From contig JAWXBZ010000007.1 of assembly GCA_034440375.1 (NCBI GenBank), positions 1-22,560 on the forward strand: a stretch of 22,560 nt of DNA, given 5' to 3'. The DNA is from Candidatus Eiseniibacteriota bacterium (lineage in GTDB: Bacteria; Eisenbacteria; RBG-16-71-46; JABDJR01; JAWXBZ01). The stretch's first letter is position 1. The number at the start of each line of letters is the position of its first letter. The position numbers and the translations under genes were made by a program. This document shows, piece by piece, positions 6,212 to 22,560 of the stretch. The notes under the pieces were generated by a model. The model saw only the letters and a list, made by a program, of their open reading frames with translations, searched no databases and had not been told where the DNA came from.

Positions 6212-7033
6212 ATGGAGGACAGCTGCGCCCTGATCACCACTCACTATGCCGCCAGTGCGGAGGGATACCGCGACTGGTGGGCGCCGGTACTGGACCATCT
6301 GGCGGGACCGACACTGGACGCGCTGCCGATTCCACCGGGGGCGCCGCGGCTTCTTGACCTTGGCTGCGGCACCGGCCTCGCGAGTCGGCGGCTGGCTCCG
6401 CGACTTCCCGGGAATGCCCGCCTCGTGGCCGGTGACCTGGTTTTGGCCATGCTGGTTCAGGCGCGGCAACTGGCTCCGAGCATCCCCGTCGTGCGATTCG
6501 ATGCGGTGCGGCTTCCGTTTCCGGATTGCCGGTTTGATCTGGTCGTCTGCACGTTCGCCCTGCATCACATCCGCGAGCAACGCCGCACGCTGGGCGAGAT
6601 TTATCGAATCCTGAAACCGGGTGGACGGCTCCAGCTCGTCACCTGGGGCGCCGACGATCCCGGCTGCCCGGCCATGACGGCCTGGGACGACCTCCTGATG
6701 GAGATGGGCGGGCCGGCCGAGGATCCGAAGGCACCCACCGTCTGGCACGAGGAGATAGGCAGACCGGCGGCGCTGAAAGCCATGCTGACCACGCTCGGCT
6801 TCCGCTCCGTGTCGGTGACTCTGTCAGCCGGAGTCCACGACTTTACGCCGGAAACGCTGGCCGGGGTTCGACTCGGCGTAGGCGCGGGACGGCGTCGATT
6901 CCTGGCCCTCTCGTCATCCTCGCGCGAACGCTTCGAATCCAGGGCCCGCGAGCTGCTGGCCGGGCTCGCCGCCGCCGACTTTGTCTGGCGCCCGGACATC
7001 GTCACCGCCCAGGTCGTCAAACCGGCCAGGTGA
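6212..7033 (+). CDS. Class I SAM-dependent methyltransferase (UbiE-like)
   Basis: Motif I LLDLGCGTG, then DAVRLPFPDCRFDLVVC and EIYRILKPGG. Start moved to ATG 6212 to avoid overlap with the divergent gene. Confidence 0.88.
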   Translation: MEDSCALITTHYAASAEGYRDWWAPVLDHLAGPTLDALPIPPGAPRLLDLGCGTGLASRRLAPRLPGNARLVAGDLVLAMLVQARQLAPSIPVVRFDAVRLPFPDCRFDLVVCTFALHHIREQRRTLGEIYRILKPGGRLQLVTWGADDPGCPAMTAWDDLLMEMGGPAEDPKAPTVWHEEIGRPAALKAMLTTLGFRSVSVTLSAGVHDFTPETLAGVRLGVGAGRRRFLALSSSSRERFESRARELLAGLAAADFVWRPDIVTAQVVKPAR

Positions 7034-7175
7034 ACGGGGGTCGGGCCGGCCAGGTCGCCATCCGATGACCTCCGCACGACATGCCCGAATTGTGGCGCCG
7101 GGATGACGGACCGCGGTTGTAAAACCCGCTGCTCGCGGCGCCACTCTTCCACCGATTGCCCTGAATCCCTGGTAG
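7030..7175 (+). pseudogene. Probable decayed small CPxCG zinc-finger protein gene
   Basis: Reads TCPNCGAGMTDRGCKTRCSRRHSSTDCP with no in-frame start upstream of CPNCG. The GTG at 7030 is out of frame, and removing one A near 7164 restores a ...DCPDPW-stop ending. Confidence 0.5.
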
Positions 7176-7239
7176 CCGACGCGGCAGGTCGGGCGTAAGA
7201 TTTCGGCTCACACCCCTCAACATTGGAAAGGATGGGACC

Positions 7240-8028
7240 ATGGCAGAATGCAGCGAACACTCCCCCGGCACCTTTTGCTGGGTGGATCTGGCCACGACGG
7301 ATCGCGCGGCGGCCCGGAAGTTTTATGGCGAGCTCTTCGGCTGGACCTTCGAGGAGAATCCGGCCGGACCCGACATGACTTATACGATGGCGAAGCTCGG
7401 CAGCCATGACGTGGCCGGGCTGGCCGATCTTCAGGCGGAGCAGGCGTCTCAGGGGGTGCCACCTCATTGGATGTCGTACGTGGCAGTGGACGACGCGGCG
7501 GCCACCGCCGCGAAAGTGAAGTCGCTCGGCGGAATGGTTCTGATGGACGCATTCGATGTCATGGAGCATGGTCGAATGGCCGTCTTCATGGATCCCGATG
7601 GCGCCATGTTTTCCGTGTGGCAGCCGAAGAGCCACAAGGGGGCCGGCCGGCGTGACGAGCCCGGCACGCTGTGCTGGAACGAACTTGGCACGCGGAACAC
7701 CGACATCAACGGCGCCTTCTATACCAATTTGTTCGGTTGGGGTACCACGCCGATGACCGGTTCCGGCGACATGCCCTACACCATGTTCATGAAGGGCGAG
7801 ACGCCAATCGGCGGCATGTATGCCTTGACCGAAGCGATGAAGGATGTGCCGCCCCACTGGCTGCCTTACTTCGCCGTGGCCAGTGTCGACGACTCATTCG
7901 CGAAGGCGGGGAGACTGGGCGCCAAACCACTCATGCCGGGGACCGACATCCCGAACATGGGGCGCTTCGCCATTCTTCACGATCCGCAGGGCGCAGTCTT
8001 CGCGATTTTTCAGGGACTCAATCAGTAG
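7240..8028 (+). CDS. VOC/glyoxalase family protein with two domains (CFP32-like)
   Basis: Two repeats: PGTFCWVDL...FYGELFGW...PPHWMSY...GRMAVFMDPDGA and PGTLCWNEL...PPHWLPYF...GRFAILHDPQGA. Confidence 0.92.
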   Translation: MAECSEHSPGTFCWVDLATTDRAAARKFYGELFGWTFEENPAGPDMTYTMAKLGSHDVAGLADLQAEQASQGVPPHWMSYVAVDDAAATAAKVKSLGGMVLMDAFDVMEHGRMAVFMDPDGAMFSVWQPKSHKGAGRRDEPGTLCWNELGTRNTDINGAFYTNLFGWGTTPMTGSGDMPYTMFMKGETPIGGMYALTEAMKDVPPHWLPYFAVASVDDSFAKAGRLGAKPLMPGTDIPNMGRFAILHDPQGAVFAIFQGLNQ

Positions 8029-8035
8029 GCACGAC

Positions 8036-8070
8036 GCGGGCGGGCGGTTCCATCGGAGCCGGCCGCCCGC
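8036..8070. terminator. GC-rich hairpin between convergent genes
   Basis: GCGGGCGG...CCGCCCGC outer stem with inner CGGTTCC/GGAGCCG. It lies between the stops at 8028 and 8102 and has no clear U tract. Confidence 0.4.
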
Positions 8071-8101
8071 TGCAGTTCACTTTGTTGTCGCCACCGCACG
8101 T

Positions 8102-9010
8102 CTACCAGTCGATCGTGCCCTGCCCCAGGTAGACCACCGGTCCTCCGACCTTGACCGACGAGATGCCGTCGTAGGAATTTTCGATTTCGATTTCGATCTG
8201 GCTGGGGCGTCCCACCTCGTGACCCTGTTCATTGCTGATCCGGACGATGGGATCGCAAGGCACCAGCTTGTGGCGCACCAGATAGGCGCCAAGACAACCG
8301 GCGGCGCTGCCCGATGCTGGATCCTCGCCGGTATGGTCCGGCATGATCAGCCGGCCGTGGGTCGTTGACATCGGGTCGATCGTTTCGCGGGTAAAGAGAT
8401 AAAACATCTTGCTGCCGAACAGCTCCGCCGCCTGCCGCACCAGGTCCATCCGGGGCATGACGCGTCGCAGCGCTTTCAGCGAGCGAAGCGGCACCATGAT
8501 CTGCTTCAAGCCGGTCGACACCATCTGGATCGGCAAATCGGGCGTGGCGAAATCGGATTCGGGAATGCCCATCGCTTCCGGCAGCGGTCCCGGCTCGTGG
8601 ATCGGCTCGTAGAATACGGGCTCCGACTGAGTCATCACGACTTTGCTCACCTGCCCGGCCCGGACCATGAGATCGACGGGAAGGATCCCGGCCCCGATCT
8701 CCTGGAAGACCCGCGTCACCGGCTCACTCAGCTCATAGCGACCCAGCCGTGCCAATACGAAGTGTGTGCCAAGCGTTGGGTGGCCGGCCATCGGCAGTTC
8801 CTCGGCCACGGTGAAGATCCGGACGCGAACGTTGGCGCCAATGGCGCGGGCCCGCTGCACGAACGTCGACTCCGAAAGATTCATCTCCCTGGCCAGGCTC
8901 TGCATGATGTCGGTTGGCAGCCCCTCCGCGTCGGGAAAGACCGCCAGTGGATTGCCGCCAAATGGGCGCGTGGTGAAGACGTTGACGCGGTGATACGTGA
9001 TGGTCGGCAC
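8102..9010 (-). CDS. PhzF family phenazine-biosynthesis-like isomerase (DAP epimerase fold)
   Basis: Motifs VFTTRPFGGNPLAV, REMNLSESTF, ELPMAGHPT, EDPASGSAAG and QGHEVGRPS. Confidence 0.93.
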   Translation of the reverse strand: MPTITYHRVNVFTTRPFGGNPLAVFPDAEGLPTDIMQSLAREMNLSESTFVQRARAIGANVRVRIFTVAEELPMAGHPTLGTHFVLARLGRYELSEPVTRVFQEIGAGILPVDLMVRAGQVSKVVMTQSEPVFYEPIHEPGPLPEAMGIPESDFATPDLPIQMVSTGLKQIMVPLRSLKALRRVMPRMDLVRQAAELFGSKMFYLFTRETIDPMSTTHGRLIMPDHTGEDPASGSAAGCLGAYLVRHKLVPCDPIVRISNEQGHEVGRPSQIEIEIENSYDGISSVKVGGPVVYLGQGTIDW

Positions 9011-19075: not shown

Positions 19076-19678
19076 TCATGATTGTTCGCCGAAACGGGTT
19101 GAATTTCGCACCAGGTCTTCGGGCGTATCGAAATCAATCAGAATTGAATCGTCTTCAACTGGAACATCAACGCGGTCACTGCGGAACGCCTGCAGAATCT
19201 CAAACAGCGTTTCAGTGGGCTCTGCCGCTTTGATGCGCGAAAATATTTCCGATCCGAGCAGAAGGGGGTGCCCGCCCCGACCGTTCCAAACGGGCCGGAC
19301 GACTGGAGCACCGCTCTGAGCTCGTATCGAGACGAGTCGCCGAACCAGCGTGCCGTCGGTCTGGGGCTGGTCGACGAGCGCCACGACGGCGGCCGTCACA
19401 TCGGCCGGAAGATGCGACACCGCAAGGCGAAGCGAACCCGCCTGGCCGGTGGGCCAATCGGGGTTATCGATCCATTGCGCCCGGGTGAGCGAAACCGAGG
19501 ATCGCGTCAGCGCGGCGTGAGCGCCGATCACGACCAGGATCGGGTCGAGGTCCGCTTCCGCAAGGCGTGTGACGACCATCTCGATGAAAGTCGAACCGTG
19601 CCACGGCAGGAGCGCCTTGGGACGACCCATCCGCCGGGACTCGCCGGCGGCGAGCACGATCCCGGCAGTCCGGCTCAC
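19076..19678 (-). CDS. Nucleotidyltransferase, MocA-like (molybdenum cofactor cytidylyltransferase family)
   Basis: Motifs LAAGESRRMGRPKALL, NPDWPTGQAGSL, LVDQP, GHP and DFDTPED. GTGA overlap with the upstream gene. Confidence 0.85.
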   Translation of the reverse strand: MSRTAGIVLAAGESRRMGRPKALLPWHGSTFIEMVVTRLAEADLDPILVVIGAHAALTRSSVSLTRAQWIDNPDWPTGQAGSLRLAVSHLPADVTAAVVALVDQPQTDGTLVRRLVSIRAQSGAPVVRPVWNGRGGHPLLLGSEIFSRIKAAEPTETLFEILQAFRSDRVDVPVEDDSILIDFDTPEDLVRNSTRFGEQS

Positions 19679-20476: not shown

Positions 20477-21418
20477 GTGCTGAGTTGGGCCGAGGCCTGG
20501 CCCTGGGTGGCATTTCTGGCCCTTGTCATCGGCCTTCTGGTGCTCGACCTCGGGGTGCTCCACCGGCGGGAACATGTCATCCGGCCGAAGGAGGCGCTGG
20601 GCTGGAGTCTCTTCTGGATCTCGCTGGCCATGGCCTTCTGCGGTGTGATCTATTTCTGGAAGGGTCCGGGCCCCGCCGTTGAGTTCCTCACCGGCTACCT
20701 GATCGAGCAATCGCTCTCCGTCGACAATCTTTTCGTCTTCGTCCTCATCTTCACCTACTTCCGTGTGCCGGCCGAGTACCAGCACCGCGTCCTCTTCTGG
20801 GGGATTCTCGGCGCCATCGTTTTCCGGGCCACGTTCATTCTGGCCGGCGCGTGGCTGCTCAATCGCTTCGCCTGGATCGAGTATGTCTTCGGGGCCTTCC
20901 TGATTCTCACGGCCCTCAAGATGCTCAAGGGCGGGGAGCCCGAAATCCATCCGGAGGGGAATGGGCTGGTCCGCCTCCTTCGCCGCTTCATTCCGGTCAC
21001 TGCCGACTTCGAGGGGACGAAGTTCTTCGTTCGGCGGGGGGGCGTCCTGACCGCCACGCCGCTCGTCATCGTCCTCATCCTGGTGGAGACCACCGATATC
21101 GTCTTTGCACTTGACTCGATCCCGGCCATATTCGGCGTCACCCGCGACCCCTTCATCGTCTTCACCTCGAACATCTTCGCCATCCTCGGCCTGCGCGCCC
21201 TCTACTTTCTGCTGGCCAGCGTGCTCGGCCTCTTTGCCTTCCTGAACATCGGTCTGGCAGCCGTCCTGGCGTTCGTCGGCCTAAAAATGGTCCTGTCTCA
21301 TTGGATTCACATCCCGACCAGCGTTTCCCTGCTGGTAGTATTCGGATTGCTCAGCCTGTCGATCGTGGCCTCCCTGCTTTTCCCGCGGAAGCAAACCGAC
21401 GGCCAATCGAGGCCGTAA
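20477..21418 (+). CDS. TerC/Alx family metal-homeostasis membrane protein
   Basis: Motifs GYLIEQSLSVDNLFVF, QHRVLFWGILGA, ETTDIVFALDSIPA and FTSNIFAILGLRALYF. Confidence 0.93.
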   Translation: MLSWAEAWPWVAFLALVIGLLVLDLGVLHRREHVIRPKEALGWSLFWISLAMAFCGVIYFWKGPGPAVEFLTGYLIEQSLSVDNLFVFVLIFTYFRVPAEYQHRVLFWGILGAIVFRATFILAGAWLLNRFAWIEYVFGAFLILTALKMLKGGEPEIHPEGNGLVRLLRRFIPVTADFEGTKFFVRRGGVLTATPLVIVLILVETTDIVFALDSIPAIFGVTRDPFIVFTSNIFAILGLRALYFLLASVLGLFAFLNIGLAAVLAFVGLKMVLSHWIHIPTSVSLLVVFGLLSLSIVASLLFPRKQTDGQSRP

Positions 21419-21500
21419 CGCCTTTGGCACCCGCTCCTGTAACTCCCGGGCCAGGCCGGCATCTGATTGATGGGCCACAACACTGAGGGGAGAACTGACC

Positions 21501-22379
21501 ATGCGCCATCTGATTGCCAGGGCCGTCCTGTTCGGGGGCCTGCTGGCCCTGCCTCTGTTCGGGGGCACTCTTGTCGTCCCGACGCCCGTCCACGCCAACA
21601 TCAATGTCGGTGACACCGCCCCCGCCTTCACCAAGAACGCCCTCGACGCCCCACCCCCGGCGGCCCGCTCCCTGTCCGACTACCCGGGCAAGGTCATCAT
21701 CCTCTTCCTGCTGGGGTACAACTGACCGTTTTGCCTCGCGGACGGTCCGTCCGTGCAAGCTGACCTGAAGCAGTACTATGACGTCACCTACCCGGGCCGA
21801 GTCCAGGTGCTGGGGGCGGACATGTACAACGGCACGGAGGCGCAGCTCCGCTCCTTCCGGACGCAGACGGGGGCCACCTACCCGCTTCTCCTGCAGGGCG
21901 CTTCGGCGGTCGGGGGCAATCTGAACACGCTGTACGGGCCGTTCGACAACTACCTCGTCATCAATGCCGATGGCATCGTCCGCTACCACTCCGCGAACAT
22001 CCATCCGCATGGCGACCGCTACTACCTGAACGAGATCCGCGCGGTGGTGGATTATGAGATCAACCTGGTCGGTGTTCCCGACGAGGGGGGCGGTCTTCCC
22101 GGCTTCATCCTGTCCGCCGCGCCGAATCCGTTTGCCGGCAGCACCGTCATTGAATTTGTGAATCCCACCACGGAGACCCTCCCGGCCAAGGCCACGGTGC
22201 ATGACCCTCTCGGACGCCTGGTTGCCACCCCTTGGTCCGGTACGGCCGAGCCCGGTCGCCAATCCCTGCGCTGGGACGGCAGGGGAGTCTCGGGCAACCG
22301 TGTTCCGTCCGGCAGCTACTTCGTGCGGGTACAGCTGGGTCGCAACACCGCCGTCCACCGGGTCACCGTCCTGCCATGA
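21501..22379 (+). CDS. Putative exported selenoprotein: AhpC/TSA-redoxin domain (UxxC, Sec at codon 75) + FlgD-Ig/T9SS-like C-terminal domain
   Basis: ORFs 21501-21725 and 21753-22379 are in the same frame and separated by a single TGA (21723-21725), in GKVIILFLLGYN-U-PFC. A hairpin follows. The C-terminus has PNPF...WDGR...VPSGSYFVR. GGAG SD upstream. Confidence 0.85.
21731..21758 (+). promoter_or_regulatory. Candidate bacterial SECIS element
   Basis: Lower stem TTGC/GCAA, CTC bulge, upper stem GCGGACG/CGTCCGT, and a G-initiated loop GTC starting 19 nt after the UGA. Confidence 0.7.
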
Positions 22380-22560
22380 CGATCCGGACGCTTCGAACTT
22401 CGCCGCGCTTCGTGTCGGTTGTGCCCGCCATTTTCGTCCTGACACTATCCCTCTTCCGACCGGCCATGACGGCGGCCGCGGAAAACCGCCCGGCGCCGAG
22501 CGTGTCGTTCCGCCTGTTGGATGGCGCCCGGCTCGATCTGAGGAGCTTGTGCCGGCGCGG
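22376..22560 (+). CDS. 5' part of a probable TlpA-like/redoxin protein (runs off the window)
   Basis: ATGA overlap with the previous stop. MTIRTLRTSPRFVSVVPAIFVLTLSLFRPAMTAAAENRPAPSVSFRLLDGARLDLRSLCRR shows a signal peptide and the APxxxFxxLDGxxxxLxxL redoxin start. The CxxC motif is not visible within the window. Confidence 0.6.
   Translation, partial: MTIRTLRTSPRFVSVVPAIFVLTLSLFRPAMTAAAENRPAPSVSFRLLDGARLDLRSLCRR

Follow-up and report, generated by a model that had tools for sequence, protein, structure and literature searches.

An in-frame UGA in the redox active site of a probable exported selenoprotein of Candidatus Eiseniibacteriota

When a bacterial reading frame is interrupted by a UGA codon, does the interruption mark the end of a gene, the decay of a gene or the insertion of selenocysteine (Sec, U)? 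This question is raised by the window examined here, i.e., the whole 22,560-base contig JAWXBZ010000007.1 (termed C7) of a Candidatus Eiseniibacteriota metagenome-assembled genome (MAG) (GenBank GCA_034440375.1, termed G000; 264 contigs, 93.7% complete, 0.09% estimated contamination, 63.8% GC). A frame that opens at ATG 21501 meets a TGA at 21723-21725 (codon 75), continues with CCG TTT TGC (P-F-C) and remains open until a second TGA at 22377-22379; read with translation Table 11, it falls apart into two open reading frames (ORFs), one of 74 amino acids (21501-21725) and one of 208 amino acids (from GTG 21753 to 22379). An earlier note, made from the letters of this DNA, had described such a split--a 74-residue ORF, the TGA, P-F-C and a 292-residue product running to 22379--and its coordinates and residues are exact. 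The evidence given below makes it very probable that the two ORFs form a single gene, in which the internal UGA specifies Sec within a thiol-redox active site.

The reading frame on either side of the UGA

The gene and its immediate landmarks are the following:

21501-22379, + strand: putative complete selenoprotein gene of 292 codons, with Sec codon 75 and a terminal TGA stop (ORF reading, homologue ends)
21723-21725, + strand: UGA probably read as selenocysteine, U75 (homologue and orthologue columns, other assemblies)
21723-21734, + strand: predicted active-site motif U75-P-F-C78, directly 5' of helix 76-96 (alignment columns, model)
21486-21493, + strand: Shine-Dalgarno-like GAGGGGAG, 7 nt 5' of ATG 21501 (assigned by eye)

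One predicted domain extends over both sides of the internal TGA: Pfam matches to AhpC-TSA (residues 36-162) and to Redoxin (residues 36-166) cross codon 75, and an AlphaFold2 (AF2) model consists of one unbroken domain, with a predicted local distance difference test (pLDDT) score above 90 at residues 40-150 and with residue 75 capping helix 76-96. The second TGA (22377-22379) acts as a stop, inasmuch as homologues end at the same place; this terminal UGA is not accompanied by a hairpin of the selenocysteine insertion sequence (SECIS) type.

A search of a large protein collection returned 120 clusters, comprising 49 full-length, 68 N-terminally truncated and 3 C-terminal-domain-only ones. The 68 truncated clusters begin at query residues 79-103, that is, just past the active site, which is the output expected of gene callers, since calling stops at the TGA. 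Among the 34 of the 49 full-length homologues that were aligned, both column 75 and column 78 are Cys in every case (34/34), and these Cys-form homologues are single proteins of 275-290 residues. At the DNA level, 32 loci were examined, 10 from relatives' genomes and 22 from GTDB species genomes (with L061 unmapped). Close orthologues, defined by an alignment score of at least 340, number 21 with the window counted in; the codon at column 75 is TGA in 17 of these (window included) and TGT or TGC in the other 4. The TGA-bearing orthologues come from different MAGs and are 43-55% identical to the window (for the rows with a figure); their frame is intact on either side of the TGA, and no frameshifts or extra stops were seen in the orthologues.

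A quick maximum-likelihood (ML) tree of 24 rows--excluding L027, L028, L031, L037, L060, L062 and L063, due to low scores, and the unmapped L061--places the Cys forms scattered among the Sec forms, with a minimum of 4 Sec/Cys changes, at least 3 of which are forced by starred branches; the tree gives the number of such changes, not their direction. More distant redoxins of relatives also carry a TGA at column 75, both within the motif SWUPVC (L027, L028 and L037, from genomes G020, G027 and G013, respectively) and within GYSUSEC (L030, from G025); the hairpins that follow the TGA in these four loci differ, e.g., GGUCCG-GAGUUUU-CGGACC. Another distant redoxin, L031, has Ala at this column. Several independent Sec-redoxin families exist in the class.

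The TGA is likewise found in other assemblies: contigs of three other runs (X2, X3 and X4, which may come from one sampling campaign) are identical in their letters across it, and a strain from another study (X7), which is about 6% divergent (30 differences within 531 nt), retains the TGA as well as all of 21735-21783. The retention of this segment is a weak point, given that only about 3 differences are expected there by chance; the three X7 changes examined beside the TGA (at 21719, 21728 and 21734) are all synonymous, third-position changes. Among RNA runs, none was listed as containing this stretch.

Both strands of the genome (3.96 Mb) were also scanned for an in-frame TGA with at least 50 open codons before it and at least 60 after it, with a GC content at third codon positions (GC3) that reaches 0.8 or more and exceeds that of the other frames, and with a hairpin of at least 6 bp having a G[G/U] loop. 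This yielded 6 places, among which TGA 21723 has the longest stem and the highest GC3, and the other 5 of which look non-coding. The scan is specific but not sensitive, as it missed a paralogue on contig C177 (described below).

The genes for Sec insertion are found in the same MAG, with scores above curated cut-offs for selA (582 bits), selB (332 bits; 362.5 when its C-terminal part is added) and selD (337 bits); a tRNA-Sec is detected both by Rfam (68.6 bits) and by ARAGORN, which calls a tRNA-SeC with anticodon tca. The selD matches occur in two contig-end pieces (C122:58742-59509, covering model positions 58-310, and C66:7641-7898, covering positions 1-89), which represent either two copies or a single gene broken up in assembly. 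The earlier note had tied its reading to three checks, and the outcome of each agrees with it: the homologous column holds Cys or TGA and never Trp or random residues (34 aligned homologues, 21 close orthologues), independent assemblies keep the TGA, and selA, selB, selD and tRNA-Sec are present.

A second Sec-redoxin paralogue is located on contig C177 (TGA at 6245, + strand), with the motif AYW-U-PPC and without the C-terminal sorting domain described below; downstream of its TGA comes a 7-bp hairpin whose loop (nt 21-23) is again GUC, and the paralogue itself lies directly upstream of a second DUF6029 gene (about 6892-8142). Apart from such internal codons, TGA is a stop in this genome, given that the selenoprotein gene of the window and the C177 paralogue both end in TGA where their homologues end. 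A Sec-type formate dehydrogenase was not found in the genome: no alpha subunit scored above cut-off, and no in-frame TGA was seen in any. The selenoproteome of this MAG may be dominated by thioredoxin-fold proteins.

The hairpin behind the UGA

Directly downstream of the active-site codons lies a predicted RNA element:

21737-21755, + strand: candidate bacterial SECIS-type hairpin, with an 8-bp stem (21737-21744 paired with 21748-21755) and a GUC loop (21745-21747) (folding, covariation)

This hairpin starts 11 nt 3' of the UGA, so that its loop occupies nt 23-25 counted from the U of the UGA, at a UGA-to-loop distance of 19 nt. The stretch GACGGTCCGTC, which lies over the codons for D-G-P-S and makes up the core of the hairpin, is identical in all 17 Sec forms and occurs in none of the 4 Cys forms. 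Yet the residues encoded by the Cys forms are the same, or nearly so ([D/N]-G-P-S): three differ from GACGGTCCGTC at third codon positions, and the Cys form L052 also has Asn (AAT) in place of Asp. Standard pairs make up 98.4% of the stem cells in 16 distinct Sec forms as against 56.3% in the 4 Cys forms, and compensatory changes are seen at 3 of the 8 pairs in the Sec forms and at none in the Cys forms. These changes, from CG to GC in two pairs and to AU in a third, fall at synonymous sites; the window's GC form of one stem pair, for example, sits on the third positions of an Ala and a Ser codon. In control analyses of the Sec-form covariation, 0 of 500 shuffles reach the observed score, and registers slid along the alignment are only 16-56% paired. 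The isolated hairpin has a minimum free energy (MFE) of -11.2 kcal/mol, and, within 43-nt contexts, it forms the MFE core in three Sec forms and in neither of the two Cys forms folded.

The published bacterial SECIS (bSECIS) model, as presented in a 2026 review (PMC13188914), specifies a loop of 3-9 nt, a stem of 4-16 bp, a G within the first two loop positions, a spacing of 16-37 nt and an MFE of -7.5 or lower; a hairpin with a loop that starts G-U, an 8-bp stem, a spacing of 19 nt and an MFE of -11.2 kcal/mol fits this description. It is also similar to the E. coli fdhF SECIS, for which the account in PMC8659212 gives an upper stem-loop that starts at nt 15 and has G23 and U24 in its apical loop; it differs from that element in its uninterrupted 8-bp stem and its 3-nt GUC loop.

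Several observations weigh against this interpretation of the hairpin. It does not have the bulged U17 that, according to the same account (PMC8659212), E. coli SelB needs. An E-value scan of 21400-22000 against Rfam gave no SECIS match, only matches at chance level. The 76-nt context folds no better than its shuffles (z -0.58), and its MFE favours another stem. Moreover, the conservation of the hairpin is in part protein-level conservation, since its codons encode the conserved residues D-G-P-S-V, so that the weight of the argument falls on synonymous positions, and the Cys-form controls number only 4. An alternative stem, which pairs nt 2-7 with nt 20-25 and is unpaired at one position in 11 of 16 sequences, was rejected because it shows no covariation and because it breaks in orthologues that differ at residues 76-77.

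Three other accounts of the TGA may be weighed against these findings. If it were a nonsense mutation, an assembly error or the trace of a decaying pseudogene, so that only fragments or no product would result, then one would indeed find two Table 11 ORFs, and one would find, as is the case, that the family is represented in databases mostly by fragments; such an account is nevertheless highly improbable, in that a TGA persists in 17 of 21 orthologues at 43-55% identity with the frame intact on both sides, other assemblies agree, the X7 changes beside the TGA are synonymous and the hairpin covaries. The chance is smaller still that there are two real genes, i.e., one for a 74-residue secreted peptide and one for a 208-residue protein starting at GTG 21753: the latter is what gene callers put out (P0002 and others), but it would start inside helix 76-96, with the putative signal peptide, the active site and three of the strands of the fold all missing, and the Cys-form homologues are single proteins. 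A slight probability, a little greater than that of either of these, attaches to read-through of the UGA as a residue other than Sec, whether through a reassigned code (Trp or Gly) or through near-cognate decoding as Cys or Trp. Stop-codon reassignment is known in some uncultured lineages, which counts in favor of this possibility, and Cys at residue 75 would also yield an active enzyme. On the other hand, TGA is a terminal stop in both the selenoprotein gene and the C177 paralogue, Trp and Gly never occur at this column in homologues, the Sec machinery is complete and the hairpin is specific to the Sec forms. The earlier note's reading of the locus as a Sec-containing thiol-redox protein, rather than as two genes or a pseudogene, is thus supported by hairpin covariation that is confined to the Sec forms; and, as far as sequence comparison can indicate, selenium is in all likelihood inserted at residue 75.

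Predicted class and destination of the protein

Three regions of the translated protein bear on what it may do and where:

21606-21998, + strand: predicted thioredoxin-fold redoxin domain, residues 36-166, TlpA/ResA-like (Pfam, PDB profile, Foldseek)
21501-21596, + strand: putative Sec-type (secretory) signal peptide, residues 1-32, ending ...VHA before NIN (read by eye)
22119-22367, + strand: C-terminal beta-sandwich, residues 207-289, FlgD-Ig-like or type IX secretion system (T9SS) type A sorting domain (Pfam, NCBIfam, PDB profile)

The redoxin domain scores above cut-off for both Pfam AhpC-TSA (36.3 bits) and Redoxin (32.3 bits). The AF2 model, which was built on 35 sequences and includes one artefactual last residue (due to translation through the final stop), has a mean pLDDT of 88.1, is low over residues 1-30 and adopts the thioredoxin fold, with residue 75 at the classic CxxC position. 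Profile searches of the PDB match 2ls5, 3kcm, ResA and the C-terminal part of DipZ, and the top Foldseek matches are 2ls5, ResA and DipZ, with target TM-scores of 0.75-0.83 for 2ls5 and ResA. By these criteria the domain belongs, in terms of predicted activity, with the CxxC thiol:disulfide oxidoreductases of TlpA/ResA type and not with the peroxiredoxins. The earlier note had placed the protein among UxxC proteins of the AhpC/TSA or thioredoxin-fold class; of this, the thiol-redox UxxC assignment stands, and the class is refined here to an apparently exported TlpA/ResA-type protein with a C-terminal sorting domain.

The protein resembles TlpA, ResA, CcmG(DsbE) and DipZ--its best profile and fold matches--in having the CxxC position at a helix N-terminus and in its predicted export to the envelope, and it resembles DipZ further in that a TlpA-like domain is trailed by a beta-sandwich. 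It differs from all of them in its Sec in place of the first Cys and in its motif, which is G-Y-x-U-P-[FY]-C rather than W-C-x-x-C. Nor is the usual position of the cis-Pro conserved: P147 is replaced by Glu in 13 homologues (YGE) and by other residues in 3, while D149 is invariant. No link to cytochrome c maturation was seen.

The kind of selenoprotein is a known one, insofar as UxxC selenoproteins of the AhpC/TSA or Redoxin families have already been catalogued. Table 1 of the 2026 review (PMC13188914) lists both a 'Prx-like thiol:disulfide oxidoreductase' (PF00578, UxxC/UxxU) and a 'Redoxin family protein' (PF08534, UxxC), the first of which is already named in a 2006 survey (PMC1794560). 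According to the family descriptions in these sources, which rather than representative sequences were the basis of comparison, the catalogued proteins share with the window protein the same Pfam domains, the UxxC motif, Cys homologues and a SECIS that lies within the coding sequence, immediately behind the UGA. In the portions of the review that were available, a sorting domain, a TlpA/DUF6029 module and Eisenbacteria are not mentioned, and the words 'secreted' and 'periplasm' have 0 occurrences; a full-text literature search found no publication on a selenoprotein in Eisenbacteria. Judged from its sequence, then, this is a genuine selenoprotein gene that has been mis-annotated, and its less ordinary parts are the fusion to a sorting domain and the conserved module to which it belongs (see below).

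As for destination, residues 1-32 comprise a basic N-terminus, a hydrophobic core and an A-x-A-like site, the Ala32 of which is conserved in at least 90% of sequences, and the protein is quite likely located outside the cytoplasm. The C-terminal domain is above cut-off for Pfam FlgD_ig (34.4 bits, cut-off 27) and for NCBIfam TIGR04183 (24.4 bits, cut-off 23), and is below it for Pfam Por_Secre_tail (PF18962; 15.8 bits, cut-off 27); when the family profile was compared with the PDB, the C-terminal domains of PorU and PorZ were matched. Three T9SS components were searched for in the genome, namely PorU (520.5 bits, cut-off 420), SprA (535 bits summed, cut-off 200) and PorV, a gene resembling which adjoins PorU and scores 111 bits, under its cut-off of 250. 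Well over 40 ORFs of the genome end in the same FlgD-Ig/T9SS-like domain, which is likewise found at 29 or more places in each of 40 relatives' genomes; the lineage would thus seem to sort a large number of its proteins.

Export by T9SS is plausible, though not established, on account of the sorting-domain matches, of PorU, SprA and the PorV-like gene, and of the dozens of ORFs with the same domain, and it is here somewhat favored over the alternatives. Like T9SS type A cargo of Bacteroidota, the protein combines a (here putative) signal peptide with a C-terminal beta-sandwich of about 85 residues that matches TIGR04183; unlike such cargo, it belongs to an Eisenbacteria host, and its match is marginal and FlgD_ig-like. 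Counting against export by this route are the assignment of the signal peptide by eye and the marginal T9SS assignment itself, inasmuch as Por_Secre_tail and PorV fall below cut-off, TIGR04183 exceeds its cut-off by only 1.4 bits and FlgD_ig scores higher. No report of a selenoprotein as T9SS cargo was found in a full-text literature search.

Two rival views of the protein itself can be considered together. According to one, it is a peroxidase of the peroxiredoxin type, similar to PrxU, rather than a disulfide oxidoreductase. With PrxU it shares the AhpC/TSA superfamily and an active-site Sec; moreover, AhpC/TSA is its best Pfam match, NCBIfam gives a weak PrxU match (E 0.026) and peroxiredoxins are among the Foldseek matches. 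The peroxiredoxin motif, however, is TxxU, with Thr three residues before the catalytic residue (PMC13188914, Table 1). The window protein instead has UxxC with an invariant Gly72 three residues before U75 (G72-Y-N-U75), where peroxiredoxins have T/S; its resolving Cys lies within the CxxC, its top matches are of the TlpA/ResA/DipZ type and the PrxU model gives 14.2 bits (cut-off 270), all of which makes a peroxidase improbable. According to the other view, the protein is periplasmic rather than T9SS cargo, and its C-terminal part is a common kind of Ig-like or binding module. This is a serious contender, albeit the less favored one: FlgD_ig outscores Por_Secre_tail, and DipZ, too, couples a TlpA-like domain to a beta-sandwich. 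It has to be set against a TIGR04183 score above cut-off, the strictly C-terminal position of the domain, the dozens of ORFs in the genome that end likewise, the presence of PorU and SprA and the profile matches to the C-terminal domains of PorU and PorZ.

The gene neighborhood and a possible redox module

The selenoprotein gene, as it is most probably to be read, is followed by a gene that the contig end cuts short:

22376-22560, + strand: next gene, TlpA-like thioredoxin, 5' part only (its N-terminus resembles the thioredoxins of orthologous loci)

The terminal TGA of the redoxin gene and the ATG of this gene overlap (ATGA, 22376-22379). In orthologous loci a thioredoxin with the motif WATWCKPC directly follows the redoxin. 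Contig C141, when reverse complemented, begins in the middle of a TlpA-like gene, overlaps the end of C7 by 5 nt and continues with a DUF6029 gene; hence C7 and C141 probably abut, with the TlpA-like gene divided between them by the assembly. Of the 16 orthologous loci that have at least 1400 nt of downstream flank, 15 have both a TlpA-like gene and DUF6029 downstream, and one (L053) has neither. For the Eisenbacteria neighbors the TlpA-like label is based on the WATWCKPC motif and on the Pfam assignment of the counterparts in Flavobacterium and Calditrichota, where an all-Cys trio of redoxin, thioredoxin-like protein and DUF6029 occurs in one MAG each (L059, 2351-4914, and L058, 65-3235, respectively). 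The Calditrichota trio is followed by an extra redoxin whose C-terminal domain passes Pfam Por_Secre_tail (33.7 bits, cut-off 27). DUF6029 is an uncharacterised predicted outer-membrane barrel, to which, as noted in PMC9603273, Wzi-type barrels are similar by HHpred; the module of redoxin, TlpA-like protein and DUF6029 as a whole appears to be uncharacterised. A CcdA/DsbD_TM membrane protein is encoded elsewhere in the genome (63 bits).

Taken together, these components suggest the following mechanism. SelB with Sec-tRNA(Sec) would bind the 8-bp GUC-loop hairpin, so that Sec is inserted at codon 75 in place of termination, and the signal peptide would take the protein out of the cytoplasm. The C-terminal FlgD-Ig/T9SS-type domain would probably make it a substrate of the type IX system, with the cell surface or the outer membrane as its destination. 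U75 would attack substrate disulfides or other oxidised sulfur or selenium species, and C78 would resolve the intermediate to a selenylsulfide. The probably co-transcribed TlpA-like thioredoxin would be the likely re-reducing partner, itself probably fed by the CcdA/DsbD-type membrane protein, and the DUF6029 barrel a likely outer-membrane companion. Sec insertion at codon 75 is the only one of these steps with strong, though indirect, support; the remainder come from fold, domains and synteny. A relay of electrons from the TlpA-like protein to the Sec-redoxin, which is suggested by synteny and against which the absence of the module in L053 counts, is advanced only tentatively. Still more doubtful, and on balance unlikely, is the more elaborate proposal that a T9SS-secreted surface selenoenzyme stands at the end of an envelope relay leading from CcdA/DsbD through the TlpA-like protein to the Sec-redoxin at the DUF6029 barrel, with an all-Cys version of the module in Flavobacterium and Calditrichota.

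Several consequences follow for the study of this lineage. The active site appears to be missing from the public proteomes of a whole candidate phylum, given that 68 of 120 clusters are truncated in a manner consistent with a split at the UGA; models of Eisenbacteria redox metabolism and selenoproteome censuses should therefore read such genes through the UGA. If the more elaborate proposal were true, modules of this kind might be a main reason why Eisenbacteria keep the Sec machinery, considering both the lack of a Sec-type formate dehydrogenase in this genome and its second pair of Sec-redoxin and DUF6029 genes. The family also constitutes a natural set of Sec/Cys swaps (with at least 3 changes) in which the hairpin is gone from the Cys forms, and is thus useful for the study of SECIS elements embedded in coding sequence. 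The redoxin/TlpA-like/DUF6029 module is conserved in Eisenbacteria, Calditrichota and Bacteroidota and is amenable to genetics in cultivable Flavobacterium. Finally, a T9SS-sorted selenoprotein would, if true, represent a new class of cargo.

On the upstream side of the selenoprotein gene lie a gene for a TerC-family membrane protein, immediately adjacent (20477-21418, + strand; 181 bits), one for a MobA-like NTP transferase, farther away (19076-19678, - strand; 125 bits), and a 194-residue ORF; none of the three has a counterpart in the 20 orthologous loci searched, and, for want of such upstream synteny, they are placed outside the system. An antisense ORF of 364 residues (21351-22445, - strand) covers the entire selenoprotein gene and is, most likely, no more than the shadow of a GC-rich coding strand; the antisense frames of orthologous loci cluster with it for the sole reason that the sense gene is conserved.

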